11,236 nt of DNA from Candidatus Bipolaricaulia bacterium. Its GTDB lineage: Bacteria > Bipolaricaulota > Bipolaricaulia > JBHIAT01. A program made the translations under genes and the position numbers. The stretch spans positions 1 through 11,236 of the forward strand of contig JBHIAT010000126.1 in the NCBI GenBank assembly GCA_046758705.1, written 5' to 3'. Each line of letters opens with the position of its first letter. The stretch's first letter is position 1. Below the pieces are notes generated by a model that was not told the origin of the DNA, made no database searches, and was given only the letters and a program-made list of their open reading frames with translations. Of the stretch, positions 3 to 11,236 are shown in pieces.

Positions 3-3000
3 TGTACCGTCGACAGTGAGGTGTTCAAAACCCACCTAAACCAAGCCAGGGATTTGGAATCTAACAATCAATTTGAACAGGCGATTCAAGAATATGAGCA
101 GGCGGTGGCCCTATATCAGGGAGAGTTCCTCGCCGACGATCGCTACGAAGACTGGGCCATCCCCCATACAGAACGATGGCAGCAGACCTACCTCGACACC
201 TTGTCTCAACTGGCCGAATGCCACGCACGCCTGGGTCAATATCGAAGGGCAATCGCTCGATGCAACAAGATTCTAGAGATCGAGCCCTATCGCGAGCCGA
301 CCTACCGCCAATTGATGCTTTACCACTATTTAGTTGGGGATCCGGAACAGGCGATCCGGACCTATGAGCGGTTTCGCACCTTGCTGAATCAGGAACTGGA
401 CGCCGAACCCCTGCCTGAAACCCAACAGCTTTACGGACAGATCGTCGATCGGGAGATTGCAGGGATCGATGAGGTGTACCAGCCAGTCTCGGTGGTCGAG
501 CGCACCCCGATCCCAACGTTGTTGAAACGGGTCCCGTTTGTGAGTCGGGAGGGGGAATACGCCGAACTCGTCACCCATCTGGAGGAGGCCAAGGACGACA
601 GCGGGAGGACGGTTTTAATCTTTGGAGAGACGGGGATCGGCAAGACGCGCCTGGTCGAAGAGCTGATCCGTTATGGGCAATACCGATATCAGGTGCGGAC
701 CTTGGAAGGACGTTGTCATAAACTGAGTACCAGCCTGTCATATCAGCCGTTGATCGATGCGATTCGAGGCGGGCTGTCCCGGATCGATCCTCAGACGATC
801 GACATTGGACCGCTGTGGTTGGCCGAGGTGGCCGATCTGGTGCCTGAACTGCGTGACCTGATTGTGGACCTGCCTGCCAATCCGTCCCTGCCTCCGGAGT
901 TGAAACGGAATCGGCTGTTTGAAGGCCTGGTCCAGTTTTTCGCAGGACTGGCTCAGGCTGAGGGCCCGTTGGTACTGTTTCTGGACGACCTCCACTGGGT
1001 CGATCCGTCCACCTTGGACTTCTTGGCTTTCTTTTGTCCTCGCGTCGTCGACCACCCGATCTTGATCATCGGGACCTATCGCGGTGAGGAGGTTGAGGAA
1101 GCTCATCCGTTGATCAACTTGATCGAGTACGGAGAGCGACAAGGGACAGTGCACCACTATGAACTCCCTCGTCTCTCCGAGCAGGCGGTGGATCAACTGT
1201 TGAGCGAGATCGCTCCCCAGCTCGACCGATCGTTCCAGGAGCGAATCTACCAAGAGACACAGGGCAACCCGTTCTTCATCGTGGCGGTTCTACAGCACCT
1301 GTTTGAGGAAGGTCTATTGCGGGTGAGAGAGGACGGCACCTGGGCCTCCACAGTCGAGGAGATCCCCTCGGAGGATCGGGCTCGAGGACTGATGTTCCCG
1401 GAGATGGCGAAGGGGGTGATCCAAAGACGGTTGAGGCGGTTGAAGGACGAGGAACGCCAGTTGTTACAGCTGGCCGCGGTGATCGGAGAACGGTTCGAGT
1501 TTGAACTGCTCCAACGAATTGAGGGAGGAGAGACCACAGCGGCCTTAGAAACATTAGAAGGGTTAACCCAGGCTCAATTGCTGGTGGAGCAAGCGGACAT
1601 GGGAGACTACGCATTCAGCCACGGCAAGATCTGGGAAGCGGTCTACTACGATGAGCTCAGCGGGGCGAGGCGGAAGTGGCTCCATCGAAACGTGGGGGAA
1701 GCGTTAGAGCGAGCCTATGCCAATCGCCTAGAGGAGTATTCCGGACAGATTGCCGAACATTATTATCGTGGCGAGGTGTGGGAGAAAGCCGTAAAGTACC
1801 TGCTCAAAGCGGGCGAGAAAGCGCGGCGCGCTTACCTAAACGACGAGGCCATCGGCTATTTCCAGCGGACAGTGGAACAGCTACAGGGGTCTGCGTTGGG
1901 CGAGACTCATAAGGATTGGCAGCTGGAGGCATTGACAGGGTTGGGAGAGGTCTATCACGGGGTTGGGAATGAAGAAATCGCGGAAGATCACTTTCGAGAG
2001 GCAATTGCACTCGGCCAGGAGATCGGGTTGGCTCCCCGTGAACTCGTCCGACTCTATCATTGGCTGGGAGAGGTGCTGTGGTGGCAGAGCCGACACGATG
2101 AGGTGATTCGTATCGGAGAGGAGGGTCTGGCACTGTTAGGGGATGATACTGAATCTACCGAATCGGTTGAAGCCGCGTTGATGAATCAAACTATAGCAAG
2201 TAGCCACAACTTTAAGAGAAACTTCGAAAAAGGCCGTGAATTCATTTATAGAAATGCGAAATTCATCCAGCAGTTGCCCTATTCGGCGGAGCTCAGACCG
2301 GCTTACATTCATATTTTTGGCATGTATGCTCTTGACAAGGACATCGAAGAAGCATTGAAGTGGCTCCAGATCCTCGAGCAGAAGGCGGAAGGACACCACG
2401 ATGTGAGAGCACTGGGAGATGTATACCATCATGAGGGAGATACCCTGGCCAATCAGGGTGACCTGCACGGGGCCATTTCGCAGTACCAACAAGCCCTGGA
2501 ACTGTTTACAAAAATAGGAGATGCCAATCACGCAAATCGATCTCTGATTCGTATGGGAGAGGTCTCCTTGGCACTGGGCGACCTCCAAAAAGCTGAGGAG
2601 TATGCGCACAGAGGGCTCGAAACAGCAGAGATTGTAGGGGACAAGATAATGATCGCATGGGCATGCGAGAGAATGGGCACGATTTTCCTGTGTCAGAGTG
2701 CCTGGGAAGAGGCGGAGGAGGCGTTTCAGAGAGCCGCTCACCTATACCGGGAAACCAGCTCTCCTTACGAGGTGTGGCCACTCATGTCGTTAGGGCGAAC
2801 TTACCTGGCTCAGAAAAAGCGACGGGAGGCGTTGATGAAGTGTCAAGAGGTCTTCGCCCTGGTGACACTAGAAAGCTCCGCATTCCCTTACGCATTGACC
2901 AGGCTTGAAGAAGCGTACGACAATCCCAAAACGTTCCGTATCTTTTGTCAGCGCTTCCGAGAAGGACACCCCGAAGCCGACGGCTCGCCATTCGTACAAT

Positions 3001-3713
3001 GGTATCTGGAACCGACGGAGGCAATCGATTTCCCTCAAAACCTGATTCACGATGAGTTTGCCGATTCCCTTTCGTCCGATTGGGCCTGGCAGGACTCGTT
3101 TGATGACAGCTCGTTCACGGTAAACGATGGGCTGGAAATCCATGCCGCGAACGGACGAGACCTCGGTTCAATCACCAAATGGCAAATCAACCTGAACGCA
3201 CCGCGCATCCTCCGGCCGATCTCAGGAGATTTCTCGGTTCAGACGGTCTGCATGCCGGTTTCCAAAGAAAAACCAGCTATCGGTGGGCTTGTACTCTGGA
3301 AGGATCGGGAGAACTATCTCCGCCTCACTCGGGGAGTCAGAGGTGAGCACGAAATCTCGTTGGAGGGATGTCTGGGAAACAAAGATGTGATTATCGGTCA
3401 CGGACGTTTGGCCAGCGAGCGCGTTTATCTACGGCTGGAGCGGTTGGGTGATCGCGTGAACGCCCTGTGCAGCACAGATGGGATGGATTGGTACGCCGTC
3501 GGATCGGCGGCCTTTCCCATCGAGGATCCGGTTGAGGTCGGCCTACATGCCATCGGCACCATTAACCGCATTATCTACCCCGGTGCCTATCCCGATGGGA
3601 CGGCGATTCACTTTGAGTCGTTTCAGTTATGGGGGACTAAAGTATGGGGTTCATTCCTTCCTGGCTCTTTGCACATAGATCCGAACCCGACTGAGTCTAC
3701 GTTCAGACTGTGA
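3..3713 (+). CDS. SARP/AfsR-like transcriptional regulator: BTAD + STAND (AAA_16-type) ATPase + TPR repeats + C-terminal ConA-like/DUF1349-like domain; 5' end lies outside the window
   Basis: Frame is open from base 3 (CTVDSEVF, resembling the 'VD..F' BTAD start). BTAD motifs LYQGEFL..D.YEDW and EPYREPTYRQLM; Walker A GETGIGKT (624-647); Walker B LFLDDLHW; TQGNPFF; many TPR-like helices; beta-rich C-terminus (GDFSVQT, GGLVLWKD, YLRLER, STDGMDW). True stop may be TAA 3638-3640 (see findings). Confidence 0.9.
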   Translation, partial: CTVDSEVFKTHLNQARDLESNNQFEQAIQEYEQAVALYQGEFLADDRYEDWAIPHTERWQQTYLDTLSQLAECHARLGQYRRAIARCNKILEIEPYREPTYRQLMLYHYLVGDPEQAIRTYERFRTLLNQELDAEPLPETQQLYGQIVDREIAGIDEVYQPVSVVERTPIPTLLKRVPFVSREGEYAELVTHLEEAKDDSGRTVLIFGETGIGKTRLVEELIRYGQYRYQVRTLEGRCHKLSTSLSYQPLIDAIRGGLSRIDPQTIDIGPLWLAEVADLVPELRDLIVDLPANPSLPPELKRNRLFEGLVQFFAGLAQAEGPLVLFLDDLHWVDPSTLDFLAFFCPRVVDHPILIIGTYRGEEVEEAHPLINLIEYGERQGTVHHYELPRLSEQAVDQLLSEIAPQLDRSFQERIYQETQGNPFFIVAVLQHLFEEGLLRVREDGTWASTVEEIPSEDRARGLMFPEMAKGVIQRRLRRLKDEERQLLQLAAVIGERFEFELLQRIEGGETTAALETLEGLTQAQLLVEQADMGDYAFSHGKIWEAVYYDELSGARRKWLHRNVGEALERAYANRLEEYSGQIAEHYYRGEVWEKAVKYLLKAGEKARRAYLNDEAIGYFQRTVEQLQGSALGETHKDWQLEALTGLGEVYHGVGNEEIAEDHFREAIALGQEIGLAPRELVRLYHWLGEVLWWQSRHDEVIRIGEEGLALLGDDTESTESVEAALMNQTIASSHNFKRNFEKGREFIYRNAKFIQQLPYSAELRPAYIHIFGMYALDKDIEEALKWLQILEQKAEGHHDVRALGDVYHHEGDTLANQGDLHGAISQYQQALELFTKIGDANHANRSLIRMGEVSLALGDLQKAEEYAHRGLETAEIVGDKIMIAWACERMGTIFLCQSAWEEAEEAFQRAAHLYRETSSPYEVWPLMSLGRTYLAQKKRREALMKCQEVFALVTLESSAFPYALTRLEEAYDNPKTFRIFCQRFREGHPEADGSPFVQWYLEPTEAIDFPQNLIHDEFADSLSSDWAWQDSFDDSSFTVNDGLEIHAANGRDLGSITKWQINLNAPRILRPISGDFSVQTVCMPVSKEKPAIGGLVLWKDRENYLRLTRGVRGEHEISLEGCLGNKDVIIGHGRLASERVYLRLERLGDRVNALCSTDGMDWYAVGSAAFPIEDPVEVGLHAIGTINRIIYPGAYPDGTAIHFESFQLWGTKVWGSFLPGSLHIDPNPTESTFRL

Positions 3714-3907: not shown

Positions 3908-5094
3908 TCACCTCACCCCCCAAGCATAGTGGGTTACCTCCACCGACGAGAAACTCAGTCGGGGCGGACCCGTTCCCCCCGGCTTCGACGCCCGGGCCGG
4001 TTCCGGATCCGCTCCCCCGACCAGCCGCACCTGCGTGATCAACTCCCAGCCCTGCATCAGCGCCCGTTTGATCCAATTCCATCCGATCTTCAGATAGCTG
4101 CTCCCCCGAAACCAATGGGGATCGACCCAGCGCCGCTTCCCCTGCGCCACTACCTCCGTCCCCTGTGACACCAGGTACAACGTGGTCATCGCCATCACGA
4201 AGCACAGCCGGCTCAACGCCTGAGCCTCGCGCACCTCAGACGATTCCAACTGAAACCCGTTCGATTTATCGTCCAAGAAGTTCTCTTCAATGTCGAACCG
4301 CAACCCGTATTCCTCAAAGGTCTCCAGATCGGTCGGCTCATCGCTGACCACCACCCAACACGTCCGGCTTCCCCCCGGCCCCGGCCGCGCTAGCGCCAGA
4401 TGGACGGGACCATACTGGTGCTCGGTGATGGCGACATCATGAAAGAACCGCGCCTGGCCGCCTGCCACACAGATCGCCTTCACCTTGCGGCGCCACTGCC
4501 CCGCACGATACACCCAGAAGTTCCGTTTGATCCGGATGCGCCAATGCCACCCCAGCCGATCCAGATGGCGCATGAGCTTTGTGTCAGCGAAGCCGCGGTC
4601 CGCCAGCAGAACGACCCGGCAGACGGGCAGGGGCAGCAGCTGAGCTGCCCGATCCAGCAGATCTTGGTAGATCGCATAGGCGACGCTGGTGCTTGGCTGG
4701 TCCAGGACCCGCCACACGAGGGGCACCGCACGGCCCCGGTAGATCGCTGAGCCCGCACGATACAATACTTGCCCCATAACATGGAGGTGTCCAAGGCCAG
4801 GTAGAGCGTATGGTTTCCCCAGTGGGCCAAGGCGTGCTGAATCAGCGGGCCGTAGAGAGGATGGACCTCGATGCGGGGGTTGTGCAACCAGCGGGTGAAG
4901 CGGCGCACCGTACTTTGGACGTAGGTCGCTCGACTGTGGACGTAGGGGGCCCAAGCGGTCAGGCTGATTCGGCCAGACTGGATTAGGCCGACCATCATCC
5001 ACGCCAGCGTGTTGAGGTGGCGCAGATCCAGCCAGTTTTGGTGTTGACTCAAGACGCGGACCAGGGTATAGTAGAAACGAAGTGTGTTTTCCAT
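3908..5094 (-). pseudogene. IS4-family DDE transposase, frameshifted at ~4745-4752 (about 395 aa if repaired)
   Basis: N-terminal part MENTLRF...LALDTSMLWGKYCIVR (first catalytic D) lies in ORF 4480-5160. C-terminal part IYRGRAVPLVW...LADRGF (second D)...YGLRFDIEENFLDDK (IS4 Y-2-R-3-E-6-K signature) lies in ORF 3908-5002. AAGGAGG precedes ATG 5094. Confidence 0.9.
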
Positions 5095-5130
5095 GGTTCC
5101 CTCCTTCAGTGGTTTCGGGGAGGGAACCAT
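5093..5130 (-). promoter_or_regulatory. Perfect 12-bp stem-loop occluding the transposase SD and start codon
   Basis: mRNA sense reads ATGGTTCCCTCC-14 nt-GGAGGGAACCAT(G); the 3' arm contains the SD and the AT of the ATG. Confidence 0.75.
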
Positions 5131-5234
5131 CTTGTTTAGGCCACTGAGAAACTGGTTCATGGCGTGAGTTCCCTCCTCCTTTTTAGGAGAGTATAACGTG
5201 TCTTGAGCACTTTATGGAAGCCACACTTCCCGAC

Positions 5235-5251
5235 TTTTGTCGGTCAATCAG
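5235..5251. repeat. IS terminal inverted repeat (IRL, upstream of the transposase)
   Basis: ttttgtcggtcaatcag; pairs with 3890-3906. Confidence 0.85.
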
Positions 5252-5274
5252 GTCCTTACTGCCAATGTAGTATA

Positions 5275-5602
5275 ATGACGGTCCTCGGACAGTTCATGCT
5301 TTACAACTTGCTGCCCAGCCTGGTGGCAGGCGCCCTCGCCTGGCTGATGGTATACGCAGCCATTGTCTCTTTGAAAATCCAACGTGCGTCCCTGCGCCTG
5401 CCTTTGCTCTACGTTCCCTTGGTCAAATCCACATTAATCCTGCTTGGCATTGGGTTTGTACTGCCCTGGCCGCACGGGGTCTTTGCTGCCTGGAACGAAC
5501 ATGCCGTCCCACCTCTGGTCGTGCTACCCTATGTTCTACTCTGGATCGGGCGTGCTGACGTTTCTGATTGCTCTGCGAACCTTCAACTTTGCGCGGGAGT
5601 AA
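5275..5602 (+). pseudogene. Membrane protein, frameshifted or truncated at ~5548-5551; N-terminus resembles M56 (BlaR1/MecR1-type) membrane regions
   Basis: Hydrophobic segments MTVLGQFMLYNLLPSLVAGALAWLMVYAAIVSL, LRLPLLYVPLVKSTLILLGIG and VLPYVLLWIG. In-frame continuation is non-protein-like, while the +1 frame gives GVLTFLIALRTFNFARE* (TAA 5600-5602). The ORF-track start at 5203 lies inside the IS. No HExxH motif is present. Confidence 0.55.
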
Positions 5603-5653
5603 AAAGTAGAGGCGGACACAAGCAAGGAAATTATGATGACAACTTACCACAAT

Positions 5654-5683
5654 TTGACTCGCTCCTTTCCATTCACTTACAAT
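5654..5683 (+). promoter_or_regulatory. Sigma70-type promoter TTGACT-N18-TACAAT
   Basis: -35 at 5654-5659 and -10 at 5678-5683, in an AT-rich intergenic stretch ahead of CDS 5737. Confidence 0.7.
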
Positions 5684-5716
5684 GATCTTCGTCAGTGAAA
5701 CAGCTGACGAAGATCA
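5683..5716. promoter_or_regulatory. Perfect 13-bp inverted repeat (operator or 5' leader structure)
   Basis: TGATCTTCGTCAG-tgaaacag-CTGACGAAGATCA overlaps the predicted transcription start. Confidence 0.65.
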
Positions 5717-5736
5717 AAAACAAAAAGGGGGTACCC

Positions 5737-6351
5737 ATGATGAGGAGCATTTGGGCTCCGCTAACTGTGGCTGTTTTGGTGTTGACGGTGGTTATGACCC
5801 TGTTTTCCACCACCTCGTGGGCACACAAAGGAGTGACCGAGCTTGCCGAGGGGACTCTGGTTGAGCTGTTCTTCAAGGAGTCCAGCACGGGGACAAAGGG
5901 ATATGCGATCTATGACTTCAGCGTGGGACAGATTCGCGTCGAGGTCAAAGATCTGCCCCGGGCCGAGGTCGGCTATGAGGCGTTCCTCGTCGAGGTGGAC
6001 GTTCCCACCTTGGCAAACGCCGTTTTTGTCGATGGTGACCCGGACAAAGGCATCCGACCCGACTTCGATCTCACCTATGAGCAGGCGGTCGGGGCGGTGG
6101 TCAAGAGCGTGCAAAGCATCGGATCGTTTAACACGGACGCTCGCGGAAATGGGACGTTGGTCTTCAATGAAGGCAGGAATCTCCATTCTATAGGCTACAG
6201 TAAGTTCAATATGTTGATCATCTTTGAGCAGAATACTCCCGGTGTACATGAGGCACCCGAAGGGCGGGTCGTTCTGGAGTGTCACGGAACCCTCGAAGGC
6301 GCTCCGGGACCGGCCGTTCCGATTCGCGACATCGCGCCCTCTATGGGATAG
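5737..6351 (+). CDS. Secreted hypothetical protein (204 aa); Sec signal peptide, predicted mature N-terminal His, RskA-C-like beta-sandwich pattern
   Basis: RBS AAGGGGG precedes ATG 5737. Signal MMRSIWAPLTVAVLVLTVVMTLFSTTSWA|HKG. Pattern G.A..IRVEVKDLP...YEAFLV...SIGSF.TD..G.GTL...LIIFEQ...PEGRVVL resembles anti-sigma RskA C-terminal domains. Confidence 0.8.
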   Translation: MMRSIWAPLTVAVLVLTVVMTLFSTTSWAHKGVTELAEGTLVELFFKESSTGTKGYAIYDFSVGQIRVEVKDLPRAEVGYEAFLVEVDVPTLANAVFVDGDPDKGIRPDFDLTYEQAVGAVVKSVQSIGSFNTDARGNGTLVFNEGRNLHSIGYSKFNMLIIFEQNTPGVHEAPEGRVVLECHGTLEGAPGPAVPIRDIAPSMG

Positions 6352-6385
6352 TGACTTAGACTTCAAAGGGATGAAGGTGACGGTG

Positions 6386-6432
6386 GCCGTTGGCCGGGGC
6401 AATCAGGATGCTGGTCGCCCCGGTTGAACGGT
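6386..6432 (+). terminator. Long GC-rich stem-loop between convergent genes (3' stabiliser or terminator-like, no U-tract)
   Basis: GCCGTTGGCCGGGGC-AATCAG-gatg-CTGGTC-GCCCCGGTTGAACGGT; several G-U pairs form only on the + strand. Confidence 0.5.
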
Positions 6433-6449
6433 GCTGATCGATCCGTGGC

Positions 6450-7568
6450 TTAGCCTTCATGGGCCGCAGCGATTTCGTCGAGCATCCGGTCGAGATCAGT
6501 TCTTGTGTACCAACGACCCCGCACCATCACCCCGGCGATATCTCTGGTATAGGTGATGTGGTAGGCCTGCTGAGCGAAGCCGCGCATCGCGGCCAGCGTG
6601 GTCGTAACCCATTTGTCAGCGTCGGCGACCCGCTGTGCCGTCTCAGGAAAAGCCCAGGCTTCTAAACCGGCGAAGTAAGCGTCGACTTCCTCCGGACTGG
6701 TCAGGTTGTAGTGATCGGGAAATGCGTCCAGCAGAATTTTGAACAGTTCTTCGACATGGGCGGCTTCTTCCTGTTCTGAGCTCAGAAAATCGTCCAGCCA
6801 GATCGAGTACGGTATGTGGCCGATGACCGGGATGCCGCGTTGCTGTGCCGATACCGTCACGGCTCGATAGACCTCTTGGGATGCGTAACTGCCCATCTTG
6901 ATCCCATCGTAACCCTGCTGCACGAGATTGGCAGTGACCTGCTCTGCCTTTTGGGGATCGTCGACCAGCACAGACGGTACGCCCAGCGCGGATCGCAGGC
7001 CGAGGAACTGGCTGAGCCGGGTGAGACGCACGGCGTGGGGTTGCCGGTCCAGGCCGGCCCGGTCGATGCGCCTCGAAGAGCCGATCTTGGCGCTGTACAC
7101 CCATAGGTTAGGACCCAGTCGCTCGCCGCGGGCGATCTCGTCGCGCCACTTCAGGTGCCAAGGCGCTCCGGTTAGCTCGCGAACCGTCGTCACACCATTG
7201 GCCAGGTGAAGCAGGAGATCGTTCTCATACTCATGGAGATGGACGTGCATATCGCTGAGCCCCGGTAGCAAAAACCTGCCACTCCCATCCACGCGAAACG
7301 CGTCTTCCGGGATATCGATCGTTGCGTTGGGTCCCATCTGAGCGATGCGGCCGTCCTTGACGATGACGGTCTGTCCCTCCCACACCTGCTCGCGGTCCAT
7401 CGGGATCACGGTGACGTCCACAAATGCGACCGTCTGCTCTATACCCGACGGGATCTGCTCGGGAGTCAAAGCAGTATCTCTCACTCTGGCACAGCCGACC
7501 AACAGGATGGCCCCGATCAGAAACGATGAGATCCAGATGAGCTTGTGATTAAAGCGCAACGATACCAT
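6450..7568 (-). pseudogene. Amidohydrolase-superfamily lipoprotein with an in-frame internal deletion (open frame, 372 aa)
   Basis: Lipobox LVG|C; VIVKDGRI; VDGSGRFLLPGLSDMHVH; ANGVTTVRE; GYDGIK; IGHIP; AHVEE. The sequence then jumps from TTTLAAMRGFAQQAY to the terminal TRDIAGVMVRGRW, lacking the GTD, AT-x-N-x-A and G-x-x-ADL segments. Confidence 0.8.
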
Positions 7569-7605
7569 CTCATATCTGACTCCCGGCAAGGAATAGGATA
7601 GGATC

Positions 7606-7634
7606 ATTATAGGACGCACCATCAGCCCTTGCAA
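7606..7634 (-). promoter_or_regulatory. Sigma70 promoter TTGCAA-N17-TATAAT for the amidohydrolase
   Basis: -35 at 7634-7629 and -10 at 7611-7606; supports the start at 7568 rather than 7634. Confidence 0.75.
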
Positions 7635-7643
7635 GGAAATCCC

Positions 7644-7674
7644 TTGACCTTCCAGTTACTGGAAGGTGTATACT
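7644..7674 (+). promoter_or_regulatory. MerR-type promoter TTGACC-N19-TATACT with CueR-consensus operator ACCTTCC-N7-GGAAGGT
   Basis: -35 at 7644-7649, -10 at 7669-7674, 19-bp spacer; dyad ACCTTCCAGT-t-ACTGGAAGGT at 7647-7667. Confidence 0.93.
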
Positions 7675-7703
7675 TGACTTGAAAGCGCTAAAAGGAGGGA
7701 TCT

Positions 7704-7829
7704 GTGAGGGTGAAGCTACAAATTCTCGAATCACCGGGCTGCGCCAAGTGCGCGTCGGCGAAGCAGTCGGAGGTGAGAAAATGTCTCAAGCTTTGTACAT
7801 CGGCAAACTGGCAGAGCGGGTCGGTCTGA
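7704..7829 (+). pseudogene. Thioredoxin/glutaredoxin-like CxxC fragment (41-aa [44 protein letters not shown])
   Basis: Strong SD AAGGAGG before GTG 7704. A beta1-SPGCxxC-helix start typical of small thioredoxin-fold proteins breaks after about residue 21 at the merR RBS. Confidence 0.7.
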
Positions 7830-8224
7830 ATCCCAAGACGATCCGCTATTACGAGGAGATCGGGCTCCTTCCCGAGCCGGAGCGCACCAACTCAGGCTAC
7901 CGCGTGTACCGTTCTGAAGATGCCGAACGGCTGAAGTTCATCCGCAAGGCGAAGGCGCTCGGCCTGTCTCTGGATGAAGTTCGGGAGATCATCGAGATCC
8001 GTGAGCGTGGTCAACTTCCTTGTAGGCATGTGCGTCAGCTGTTGGCGCACAAGCTGAAGGAGCTGGAGGAGCACATCGACGAGCTGATCGCGTTCCGGGA
8101 CGATCTCCGAAGCTACGTGGCCGAGCTGGAGGAACGCGCCCAGGATCCGGACGAAGAGGCGATTTGCCCGCACATCGAGGGGTATTCGGGCGCGTTCACC
8201 GAGATCGGAGAGGTTCCCGAATGA
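7781..8224 (+). CDS. MerR-family heavy-metal-responsive transcriptional regulator (147 aa)
   Basis: SD GGAGGTG before ATG 7781; [52 protein letters not shown]; Cys81 and Cys129; the stop overlaps the ATPase start (ATGA). Confidence 0.95.
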
Positions 8225-10710
8225 GTGAGGTCCGCGAAAAACTTCAGGTCAAGATCGGCGGGATGTCGTGCAGCTTCTGCGTCCAATCGATCGAGAAGTC
8301 CCTGACCCGCATGGATGGTGTGGAACGGGCGTCGGTCAGCATCGCCCACGAAGAGGCGCTTGTGGGATACGATCCCGACCGGGTCACGGAAACCGAACTC
8401 AAGCAGACGCTCCGCGACCTCGGTTACACGATCCGCGATCCCGACAAGGTCAAGGCGTTCGAGGAGCAGCAGCAAGAGCTAAACACGGCCAGGCATCGCC
8501 TCCGGCTCGCCGGGATCTTCACGTTGCTGGCGCTGGGCTTCATGATCCTGATGTGGGTCCAGAAAGGGGTCTATATAGACGGCCACTTCACGGACACGAA
8601 CCGGCCGTGGATGGCGTTTGCCACGCTGGCTCTCGCCCTGGTCACGATGTTCGGCCCCGGGTGGACCATCAAGCGGAAGGCGTACCAGTCGGCCCGACGT
8701 GGCATTCTCAATCAGCACGTGCTGCTGGAGTTCGCCGCGTTCGCGGGCCTGTTCGGCGGTCTGTTGGGGCTTACCACGCTCTACAGTTCGGTGATGCGCG
8801 ACGGGTTGGGCGAGACGTTTCCCATCGTCCACTTCTTCGCCGTCTCTGTGTTCGTGACGGCCTATCACATTCTGTCCGAGTGGTCCAGCCTCCTGGTGCG
8901 GGCGCGGGCCGGCGAGAGCGTAAACAAGCTCATGGACCTCCAACCCGAGACGGCGCTGGTGATCCGAGAGGACGGGACCGAAGCGGAGGTGCCCGTCGCA
9001 GAGATCAAGGTCGGCGATCTCGTCCGCGTCAGACCCGGAACGGGGATTCCCGTCGACGGCGAGGTGATCGCGGGGGCTTCGACGGTGGACGAGAGCATCG
9101 TCACCGGCGAGCCCATGCCGGTCAAGAAGGCCGAAGGCACTGAGGTCGTGGGCGGCAGCATGAACCAGACGGGCGCGCTCAAGGTGCGCGTCACCCGCGT
9201 GGGAGACGAGGCGTTTCTCAACCAGGTCGCCCGCCACGTGACAGAGGCCCGGGCGATGAAGCCGGGGATCGTGCAGCTGGCGGACCTTGTGCTCAGCTAC
9301 TTCGTGCCCGGCGTGCTCGTGATCGCGGGAGCGGCGTTCCTGTTCTGGACGCTCGGTGCCTGGCTCATCTGGGGGGCGCCGCTGTGGGGACGGGCCGCGT
9401 TGGTGTTGGGCTATCCGTGCGCGTTGGGCATGGCCACGCCGCTCGCGCTGGTGCGAGGCGGCGGCATGGCGGCCGACCGCGGGATCCTGATGCGGGCCGG
9501 CGAGGCGTTCCAGATCTTCAAGGACGTCCAATACGTGGTGCTCGACAAGACGGGCACGATCACCATCGGAGAACCCGGCGTCGTCGAGGTCGTCCCGACT
9601 GAAGGCAGAGGCCGGGAGGACGTCCTCAGGTTGGCCGCTGGCGCCGAGACGGGCAGCGAGCACCCGTTGGCGCAGGCGATTCTGGAAGCGGCCGTGGCCG
9701 AAGAGATCGAGTGGGCCGAAGGTGAAGGTTTTCGGAGCCACAGCGGTCAAGGTGTGGAAGCCCACGTGGCCGACTCTGACGTTCGGGTTGGAAAACCGGG
9801 CTGGCTACGGGAGCGTGGCATCGAGCTCGCTCCGGTCAAAGAGAAGATCAAAGCACTCGAAGAGCAAGGCAACACCGTGGTCGCCGTGGCCACCGATGAC
9901 GAACTCGCGGGCCTCATCGCGATCGCCGATCGGCTCAAAGGGGACGCGGAAGAAGCGATCGCCCGCATGAAGAGGGCGGGGCTGGTGCCGATCATGCTCA
10001 CCGGGGACAACGCGCGCACCGCCCGCGCCGTGGCCACCCAGGTCGACATCGAAGAAGTCCTGGCCGAGGTGCTGCCCGATCAGAAGGCCGAGAAGATCCG
10101 GGAGCTCCAGGGCCGGGGCCACCGGGTGGCGATGGTCGGCGACGGGATCAACGACGCGCCGGCGCTGACCCAGGCCGACGTGGGGATCGCGATCGGCGCG
10201 GGCACGGACATCGCGATCGACTCCAGCGACGTGGTGCTCATCGGAGAGCGGCTGGGCGGCGTGGTGGACGCCTATTACATCGGCAGGAATTCTTACCAGA
10301 AGACCAAACAGAACCTAGCCGTCGCGTTCAGCTTCAACGGGGTTGGCGTGCCCGCGGCGACGACGGGCTGGGTCCACCCGATCTTTGCAATGATCGCGAT
10401 GGCCGCGAGCGTCACTGCGGTGCTCGCCAACAGTTTTGCAGGGCGATTGCTGACGGAGTCCGCATCGGTGGTGGAACGGGAGGAGCGACGTGTCCGGGAC
10501 GAACACGAGAGCGTAACGCTCCGTGTGCCGACGATGCACTGCGACGGATGCCTGGAGACCGTCATCGAGGCGGTGGCCCGGCTGGACGAGGTCGAATCGG
10601 TCGACGGTGACCTGGAGGAGAAGCTGATCACGGTGCGCTACCGGGACGATCGGGACGCACCGGCCAGGATCCGCCAGGCGGTCAAAGACGCCGGTTTCCC
10701 GGTGGGATGA
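8221..10710 (+). CDS. copA: Heavy-metal-translocating P1B-type ATPase, CopA-like (829 aa), with N- and C-terminal HMA domains
   Basis: GMSCSFC N-terminal domain; [19 protein letters not shown] (9544-9558); SEHP; TGDN; GDGIND; C-terminal TMHCDGC. The gene symbol is tentative because the membrane ligands are non-canonical. Confidence 0.93.
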
Positions 10711-10742
10711 TCACCAAGCGAAAAAGAGCAGGAGGTGACACC

Positions 10743-10967
10743 ATGGCGATCGAGAACGTGGAGCTGGAAGTGACCGGGTCGAACACGATCCACTGCACAG
10801 GCTGTGAGAACCGGATTGAGACGGTGCTGGGCAGGCTGCCCGGTGTGATGGAGATCAAGGCCGATCATAAGACCCAGAAAGTTCAGATCACCTTGGCTCA
10901 GAGCCGGACCTCGCTGGACGAAATTCGGGAGAAGATGGAGTTCATGGGATACGAGATCGCGTCGTAG
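10743..10967 (+). CDS. copZ: CopZ-like heavy-metal-associated (HMA) chaperone (74 aa)
   Basis: SD AGGAGGTG before ATG 10743; TIHCTGCENRIETVLGRLPGV...MGY ferredoxin-like HMA pattern. Confidence 0.9.
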   Translation: MAIENVELEVTGSNTIHCTGCENRIETVLGRLPGVMEIKADHKTQKVQITLAQSRTSLDEIREKMEFMGYEIAS

Positions 10968-11009
10968 CCTTTAAATCGGATGCACCCGATGTAGGTGAGT
11001 GAGAATCAC

Positions 11010-11236
11010 CTAAGATTTTCTCAGAACCAATGATAGGGCGTCTTTCAAACTCTTCAGTGCCTGAGTATCTCCTTTGGAGACACATTCATTGACGCAAGTC
11101 TCCATATGGCCTTCCAGCAGCTTGATGTTGACTTGGTTGAGGGCCGAGCGGATCGCGGCCAGTTGAATCAGGATGTCTTCACAGGGCTTGTGCGCTTCCA
11201 ACATGCTCTTGACGCCCCGGACGTGGCCCTCGATCC
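11010..11236 (-). CDS. csoR: CsoR/RcnR-family metal-sensing repressor, 5' end outside the window
   Basis: Frame extends to the edge: (R)IEGHVRGVKSMLEAHKPCEDILIQLAAIRSAL...LLEGHMETCV, with the Cys-His-Cys Cu(I)-type fingerprint. Confidence 0.9.
   Translation of the reverse strand, partial: IEGHVRGVKSMLEAHKPCEDILIQLAAIRSALNQVNIKLLEGHMETCVNECVSKGDTQALKSLKDALSLVLRKS

Follow-up and report, generated by a model that had tools for sequence, protein, structure and literature searches.

Cu,Zn superoxide dismutases (SODs; Sod_Cu, PF00080) are, in bacteria, exported or periplasmic proteins. They consist of eight strands, the loops that follow strands 4 and 7 being long, and hold their metal with several His ligands. 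In barrels of this type strand 1 pairs with the last strand. The MerP/CopZ metallochaperones and CusF are small envelope holders of Hg(II) or Cu(I) that act beside transporters and occur in mer and cop gene neighbourhoods. CopC (class C0-1) and YcnI (DUF1775) are small exported beta-sandwich proteins encoded near copper genes. According to PMC12154828, CopC conserves an N-terminal His, a second His and an Asp, and YcnI a set consisting of His1, Glu and Trp. Here we describe a gene at positions 5737-6351 of contig JBHIAT010000126.1, an 11,236-nucleotide stretch of DNA from a Candidatus Bipolaricaulia bacterium, the whole of which is called the window. From the sequence of this window the product had been predicted to expose a His at its mature N-terminus beside a copper operon, and so to represent a new histidine-brace family. 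The gene is real and encodes a secreted protein of an unnamed, widespread bacterial family. The reading that we prefer, at a probability of about 0.4, is that the family is undescribed, has a SOD-like fold and may bind or buffer a thiophilic metal in the envelope through two residues of the C-terminal region, His171 and Cys182.

The protein resembles each of these systems in part. With CopC and YcnI the query shares its small size, its export, a sandwich-like core, nearby copper genes and a predicted N-terminal His. In contrast to them, the family has another fold class, carries the terminal His in only 21 of 124 full-length relatives and has no relation to either in sequence; the query gives no Pfam match and neither family appears among the 124 relatives, as the original prediction had supposed. 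With MerP/CopZ and CusF it would share its role and its mer and cop neighbourhoods. Unlike these proteins it has an unrelated fold and a single Cys and His in place of the CxxC of HMA domains, and the one member joined to such a domain is fused to it and does not replace it. RskA_C (PF10099) and CHRD (PF07452) domains have the same general sandwich shape; the family has no profile match to either in any of the 124 relatives, no anti-sigma architecture and no adjacent sigma gene.

The Gene and its Product

The open reading frame (ORF) at 5737-6351 comprises 204 codons without an internal stop and translates into a protein of 204 residues. It is taken as a gene because homologs exist, the best match other than itself having an E value of 6e-31 (phmmer). 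The gene and its signals are as follows.

5654-5683, forward strand: sigma-70-like promoter upstream of the gene, TTGACT, 18 nt, TACAAT (consensus scan, 10/12 matches)
5683-5695 and 5704-5716, forward strand: perfect 13-nt inverted repeat with an 8-nt spacer, 100% complementary, between the -10 element and the ribosome-binding site
5727-5731, forward strand: Shine-Dalgarno sequence GGGGG, 5 nt 5′ of the ATG, read from the sequence
5737-5823, forward strand: probable signal peptide, residues 1-29, made up of MMRS, a 19-residue hydrophobic stretch and STTSWA (translation)
5824-6351, forward strand: mature domain, residues 30-204, and stop codon; predicted eight-stranded SOD-like beta-barrel (AlphaFold2)
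5824-5826, forward strand: His30 (CAC), from the translation, as are the next three
6247-6249, forward strand: His171 (CAT)
6280-6282, forward strand: Cys182
6283-6285, forward strand: His183

The signal peptide is likely to be of the Sec type and to be cleaved after S-W-A, leaving His30 as the first mature residue, since Ser at -3 and Ala at -1 satisfy the -3/-1 rule. By this rule the predicted N-terminus, HKGVTE, is the one originally proposed. AlphaFold2 (AF2) models residues 7-26 of the signal peptide as a lone helix. Relatives show the ending ...SWA or ...AWA as well, and signals of both the Sec and the lipoprotein type occur among them. The gene probably also has its own promoter, again as proposed, and here the scan is weak evidence, with two sigma-70-like sites in 5100-8300 against 1.1 expected. 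The inverted repeat at 5683-5716 is a candidate operator or 5′ untranslated region hairpin. As RNA it folds with -27.9 kcal/mol (z -7.5), a stability equalled by none of 200 shuffles, and it matches no Rfam family.

An Apparently Undescribed Family

A phmmer search of 1.84 billion representative sequences found 19 proteins at E ≤1e-3, including the query. A profile built from the first matches recovers 192 proteins at the same threshold among 8000 scored candidates, and 120 of these are among the matches listed. The relatives are nearly all 191-206 residues long (about 195), and every one is unnamed or called 'hypothetical'. The sources that are named are metagenome-assembled genomes (MAGs) of Nitrospinota, Gemmatimonadota, Marinimicrobia, Rhodothermia and Methylomirabilia, to which a genome scan adds TA06, SAR324, Planctomycetota, Acidobacteriota and an alphaproteobacterium. 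The full-length set used throughout consists of 124 out of 138 proteins, 180-270 residues long, after removal of 12 fragments (P0006-P0013 and P0015-P0018) and of the multi-domain P0014 and P0019. The query is an outlier on a long branch, being 33-44% identical to its relatives; these are mostly 55-83% identical to one of their number, P0025.

The family appears to be undescribed. The query has no credible match in Pfam (E up to 10) or NCBIfam, and no model in either collection matches the core domain of the 124 relatives, RskA_C, CHRD, Sod_Cu and CopC included. Sequence and profile searches of the PDB give nothing under E 0.01. Neither Pfam-A (2025 copy) nor NCBIfam release 20 thus contains the family, and it has no solved relative. 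A single-sequence word-index search finds the query itself as the sole match, Atlas feature searches with the query and with relative P0033 lead to unnamed clusters only, and literature keyword searches, which were not exhaustive, returned nothing on the family. The claim of an undescribed extracytoplasmic protein therefore stands, as the absence of any model and the 124 relatives indicate. The fold and the proposed role are both of already known kinds.

A tblastn search of 72,556 PLSDB plasmids with the query and P0025 gave no match, and therefore the family is not a known plasmid-borne mer accessory gene in PLSDB such as merG. Longer fused relatives of 472-2000 residues were searched for and none was found, which is weak evidence. 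The multi-domain protein P0014 (875 residues) carries two tandem copies of the domain within an LVIVD-repeat protein that ends in a type IX secretion system (T9SS) C-terminal sorting domain. An alphaproteobacterial MAG has a member at 18-1005 of its locus (L015) that is split over three frames (18-608, 575-754 and 733-1005). The first frame lacks the C-terminal motif, and the split may reflect a pseudogene or an assembly error.

Conserved Residues and the N-Terminal Histidine

The most prominent conserved block of the family lies near the C-terminus, PGxHxGPE(D)xxKLMVECNGP (in short PGxHxGPE...VECNG), which contains both His171 and Cys182. His171 is kept in 123 of the 124 relatives and Cys182 in 122, the exceptions being P0004 and P0005, which have Ser. 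The mature domain holds exactly one Cys in 119/124. Fifteen columns are invariant, E35, E38, R67 and E81 among them, and about 60 more are conserved at 90% or above. His is scarce. The mature domain has two or fewer in 108/124, and typical members have one or two with a median of eight Met; the query has four His and two Met. Three motifs had been listed as potential further ligands, NLHS (His150), GVHE (His171) and ECHG (Cys182-His183). All are present, and of their histidines only His171 is conserved. Position 150 is Tyr in 73, Val in 20 and Ala in 19 relatives, and position 183 is Asn in 123/124, with His in the query alone.

The N-terminal His behaves differently from His171 and Cys182. 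The 124 N-termini were classed by a simple signal-peptide and lipobox heuristic together with a motif rule, with the following result.

His directly after the predicted cleavage site (mostly ...SWA/HQRGV): 21/124
His one to a few residues further in (GHRGV, AHRGV, PHRGV, RHRGV): 8/124
Lipoprotein with a lipidated Cys and a linker of 13-50 residues: 24/124
His lacking from the seven residues that precede strand 1 (mostly AQRGV or QRGV): 71/124

On two trees (FastTree and IQ-TREE in quick mode), each built without the N-terminal segment, the +1 His requires at least seven changes of state, and the looser state of any His nearby (29/124) at least ten. Among very close relatives the +1 His interchanges with Ala, Ser, Gln or Gly. 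The +1 His is not conserved, an outcome that had been named beforehand as refuting the proposal, and the data do not support a histidine brace common to the family. The proposal of a new histidine-brace family thus falls, with the lipoprotein members as a further point against it.

Fold of the Mature Domain

The AF2 model of the query, made from the 124-sequence alignment, has eight strands with a predicted local distance difference test score (pLDDT) of 83.7 and a predicted template modelling score (pTM) of 0.75. The model of P0025 also has eight strands, at pLDDT 86.5, and every 10-residue block from 61 to 220 reaches at least 90. Strand 1 is predicted to start one residue past the cleavage site, His171 to lie in the loop that precedes the last strand, and Cys182 to stand at that strand's end. 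Between strands 4 and 5 runs a long connection taken up by two helices (residues 88-121). This segment had been read as an acidic insertion of about 35 residues and is instead a conserved part of the family; the only extras specific to the query are LTYEQ (112-116) and YSK (154-156).

In Foldseek searches of the PDB with both models, Cu,Zn-SODs rank top (for example PDB 5yul, 1to4 and 1s4i), with E 6.5e-3 and probabilities up to 0.98-0.99. The template modelling (TM) scores of these matches are about 0.45-0.6 by target and 0.3-0.4 by query, and none reaches E ≤1e-3. Structural neighbours in the Atlas are RskA_C, CHRD and Sod_Cu clusters at TM 0.45-0.47, which have the same general shape. The confident fold model points to an eight-stranded Cu,Zn-SOD-like beta-barrel, the likeness to SOD being weak. 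A beta-sandwich core had been foreseen and is borne out by the models, Foldseek and the Atlas; the RskA-C pattern seen in it is not, since Pfam RskA_C matches neither the query nor its relatives. Like Cu,Zn-SOD the protein is predicted to be exported, and in the models it has the strand number and the position of the long loops of that metal-hosting fold. It is nevertheless no SOD, because the fold similarity is weak, the Sod_Cu profile matches none of the 124 relatives, only one His is conserved in place of several, and the lone Cys has no conserved disulfide partner.

Soft-Metal Genes near Family Members

One relative, P0023 (269 residues), is a fusion in which the domain is followed at the C-terminus by an HMA domain bearing CxxC (Pfam HMA 2.6e-11; best NCBIfam model MerTP_fusion, 1.3e-16). 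It is the only one of the 124 members with an HMA domain, which is an addition to a core domain that itself has one Cys and no CxxC. Gene neighbourhoods were compared in 16 loci, namely the window and 15 loci from one genome scan, six of the loci being shorter than 8 kb. From the 15 scanned loci, 129 ORFs and 55 smaller ORFs were compared with Pfam, and selected ORFs with NCBIfam as well. Soft-metal genes lie within 6 kb of the family gene in four loci (L005, L007, L008 and the window).

The clearest case is L005, from a Rhodothermia MAG, where the family gene stands inside a mercury locus (5733-11198), divergent from an ArsR-family regulator. The order is ArsR, a MerT-HMA fusion, MerA, DUF302, a membrane protein and CusF, with a MerR-family gene 150 nt downstream of the family gene. 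The MerA scores 513.6 bits with TIGR02053 against a cut-off of 454 and has the C-terminal Cys pair in its translation. By eye, the divergent promoter region contains two near-identical 19-nt AT-rich direct repeats at about 9870-9888 and 9903-9921. No inverted repeat was found in this intergenic region, and its DNA fold is not significant. In L008 a convergent gene with a MerB domain lies 72 nt downstream (Pfam MerB 5e-32; NCBIfam MerB 170.7 bits, under the cut-off of 193). In L007 (SAR324) a multicopper oxidase-CusF fusion is encoded 2.5 kb upstream. L004 has a Fur-family regulator 1.6 kb away.

The occurrence of merA or merB beside two of 15 homologs is, by our own estimate and not by a computed control, far above chance, because both genes are rare. 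The association of the family with soft-metal genes is recurrent and is confined to a minority of loci. The expectation of a metal-gene neighbourhood holds for the mer locus, the merB neighbour, the oxidase-CusF fusion and the operon in the window, to which the HMA fusion of P0023 can be added, and within 6 kb it fails for the remaining 12 of the 16 loci. The predicted mature N-terminus is His in both copper-linked members (HKGVTE in the window, HGVAE in L007) and not in the two mercury-linked ones, which at two against two is anecdotal.

A Putative His171/Cys182 Site

In the reading that we prefer, an exported protein of about 175 mature residues, folded as the barrel described above, would assist resistance systems by binding or buffering Cu(I), Hg(II) or Ag(I) in the envelope. 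The core of the putative site would consist of Cys182 and His171, the two family-wide candidate ligands, which would be brought together because the last strand ends at the one and the loop leading into that strand carries the other. An exported protein that keeps a single thiol throughout its family typically uses it as a ligand or a reactive residue. This thiol, the HMA fusion of P0023 and the merA and merB genes beside two of the 15 homologs support a role in metal binding. The residues at the mature N-terminus, His30 here, could add ligands in some lineages, because the segment starts strand 1, which pairs with the last strand in SOD-type barrels. Metal might be passed to or received from the ATPase, MerT/MerP or HMA partners encoded nearby.

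A more far-reaching form of this idea, which we regard as rather unlikely, makes the family a new part of the envelope machinery with which uncultured lineages of the sea and of sediments resist soft metals. Its single Cys-His site would hold Hg(II) or Cu(I), perhaps made complete by another protomer or an HMA partner, the latter being proposed in view of the P0023 fusion and of the MerT-HMA gene next to the member in L005. In copper-linked members such as the query a further, brace-like Cu(II) site would be formed by the N-terminal His with His183, and one scaffold would thus be retuned between mercury and copper.

The Copper Operon and Other Surroundings in the Window

The other features of the window are given below.

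21-3713: BTAD/AAA_16/TPR regulator of 1230 residues with a C-terminal DUF1349 (ConA-like) domain; the longest reading runs past the 5′ end of the window
3908-5160, reverse strand: DDE (IS4-like) transposase 0.6 kb upstream of the target gene, split over two overlapping frames (4480-5160 and 3908-5002)
5203-5685: small hydrophobic, membrane-like ORF with no family match
6450-7634, reverse strand: amidohydrolase-like ORF of 394 residues; NCBIfam amidohydrolase-type models match residues about 71-154 only, and there is no Pfam match
7644-7675, forward strand: MerR-type promoter, TTGACC, 19 nt, TATACT, 5′ of the regulator-ATPase-HMA operon; the perfect dyad ACCTTCCAGTTACTGGAAGGT (7647-7667) extends over parts of its -35 hexamer and spacer
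7781-8224, forward strand: MerR-family metal regulator, ATG at 7781 inside ORF 7679-8224 (Pfam MerR_1, MerR-DNA-bind, MerR)
8164-10710, forward strand: P1B heavy-metal ATPase with HMA domains at both ends, likely start Met at 8221 (Pfam E1-E2_ATPase, Hydrolase, HMA twice)
10707-10967, forward strand: small HMA (CopZ-like) protein (Pfam HMA 4.4e-14; NCBIfam CopZ-type models under cut-off)
11010-11234, reverse strand: CsoR/RcnR-family metal-sensing repressor, cut by the window end (Pfam Trns_repr_metal 5e-22; best NCBIfam model RicR, 59 bits, under cut-off)

The copper operon named in the original prediction is there, with a MerR-family regulator, a P1B ATPase, an HMA protein and a CsoR-type repressor. 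It is classed as copper-type because its dyad, ACCTTCC-N7-GGAAGGT, is identical to the one 47-67 nt upstream of copA in E. coli K-12; in an 11-kb stretch of the E. coli K-12 sequence the pattern occurs exactly once, at that place, and in 0/200 shuffles. This implies CueR-like control of the operon, as judged from the promoter. The regulator itself scores under the cut-off with the MerR, ZntR, CadR and CueR models of NCBIfam. The ATPase scores above cut-off with TIGR01525 (554 bits) and TIGR01511 (457 bits). Aligned with E. coli CopA, to which it is 36% identical, it looks atypical, with YPC for the transmembrane CPC motif, FN for the YN pair and MAASV for MALSS, and its metal specificity may depart from that of classical CopA despite the CueR-type promoter. 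In a pattern search the CueR-type dyad is absent near the target gene and from the 15 homolog loci. At up to three mismatches it still has a single match in the window, as do 80 of 200 shuffles at that tolerance; the informative point is therefore that the target's own promoter lacks the dyad.

Three further observations concern the flanking ORFs. The split transposase may be a frameshifted pseudogene or use programmed frameshifting. For the hydrophobic ORF at 5203-5685, a second frame (5438-5602) carries the membrane-like sequence on as far as a stop codon, so that the frame seems to shift near 5500-5540, or the sequence to contain an error there. The amidohydrolase-like protein has a hydrophobic N-terminal stretch and might be exported.

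Alternative Explanations

Several findings weigh against a metal site at His171 and Cys182, and many of them also suit an envelope protein that does not bind metal. Such a protein might act in thiol-redox chemistry or stress through its lone Cys, or serve as a module that binds a ligand or partner, with the metal genes as co-travellers on mobile or accessory DNA. We consider this quite possible, if tentative. No metal gene lies within 6 kb in 12 of the 16 loci, although six loci are under 8 kb, and an all-against-all BLAST of the ORFs in the 16 loci reveals no conserved partner gene. A thiol-redox role is suggested by the redoxin, AhpC-TSA or thioredoxin-fold genes that L007, L011 and L013 have close to the family gene; L001 has a weak Thioredoxin_3 match nearby. 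Large FG-GAP/ASPIC or T9SS-tailed surface proteins are encoded close by in six loci. The residues conserved at 90% or above, more than 60 in number, exceed what a simple metal site needs and suit an enzyme or a fixed partner equally well. The Cys is missing from the divergent relatives P0004 and P0005 and from both domain copies of the surface protein P0014, which keep the GxH motif with its His. If Met residues were ligands in the family, the query would be without them, given its two against a median of eight. The closeness of His171, Cys182 and the N-terminus is read from topology only.

The position of the gene in the window gives similar grounds for caution. It lies 1.3 kb from the operon with the CueR box, has its own promoter, lacks a CueR-type operator and is separated from the operon by the opposite-strand gene at 6450-7634. 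The adjacency may be an accident of rearrangement and the local gene order recent, because a split transposase stands 0.6 kb upstream; transposases flank the gene in L001 as well. A role without metal, however, leaves unexplained the HMA fusion of P0023, the place of the L005 gene inside a mer locus between its two regulators, and the merB neighbour in L008. Nor do searches of Pfam, NCBIfam and the PDB recognise a catalytic family or motif.

A histidine brace could still be private to this protein or to a small lineage, although we think this improbable. The amine and imidazole of His30 would form, with His183 or His171, a Cu(II) site that serves the copper operon. His30 is at the predicted +1 position, His183 is unique to the query, and, should the SOD-barrel pairing of strand 1 with the last strand apply here, the two would face each other. 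The other copper-linked homolog, in L007, likewise begins with His. The invariant carboxylates E35 and E38 lie near the N-terminus, and according to PMC12154828, YcnI-type mono-histidine braces pair His1 with Glu. Against this stand the rarity of the +1 His and its repeated change of state, even among near-identical relatives, the 24 lipoproteins, and the loci L001, L004, L005 and L011, where the His near the N-terminus is not the terminal residue. CopC, YcnI and lytic polysaccharide monooxygenases show no relation to the protein by sequence or profile, and its gene has no operator in common with the CueR-type operon. A search for co-variation found Gln at residue 170 in 22/29 relatives with an N-terminal His against 18/95 of the others. 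This is not evidence, because the phylogeny-aware test has four independent pairs with a median p of 0.5, and so no power.

The last alternative, an anti-sigma sensor domain of the RskA type that no longer has a membrane anchor and is partnered with an extracytoplasmic function (ECF) sigma factor, rests on the first pattern match and on the Atlas cluster with RskA_C at TM 0.47, a value under the usual same-fold threshold, and is close to refuted, since Pfam RskA_C or zf-HC2 is found in 0/124 relatives, the protein consists of a signal peptide and one domain with no transmembrane or cytoplasmic anti-sigma part, and an ECF sigma gene, the neighbour named in advance as telling against a metal role, is adjacent in 0/16 loci and within 6 kb in one only (L010, about 4.7 kb off).

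Implications

An N-terminal His that follows a signal peptide beside a copper operon is insufficient, without conservation, to define a histidine brace, and the claim of a new family of that kind should be dropped. What takes its place is a set of about 190 'hypothetical proteins' that can be grouped into one family by the motif PGxHxGPE...VECNG and a confident fold model. If the proposed site exists, it would be a metal site built on a SOD-type barrel from one Cys and one His and not from a cluster of His residues. Should its ligand be Hg or Cu, the family would be an unannotated and widely distributed periplasmic component added to mer and cop systems, in host lineages (Nitrospinota, Marinimicrobia, SAR324 and Gemmatimonadota) that matter for marine metal cycling.

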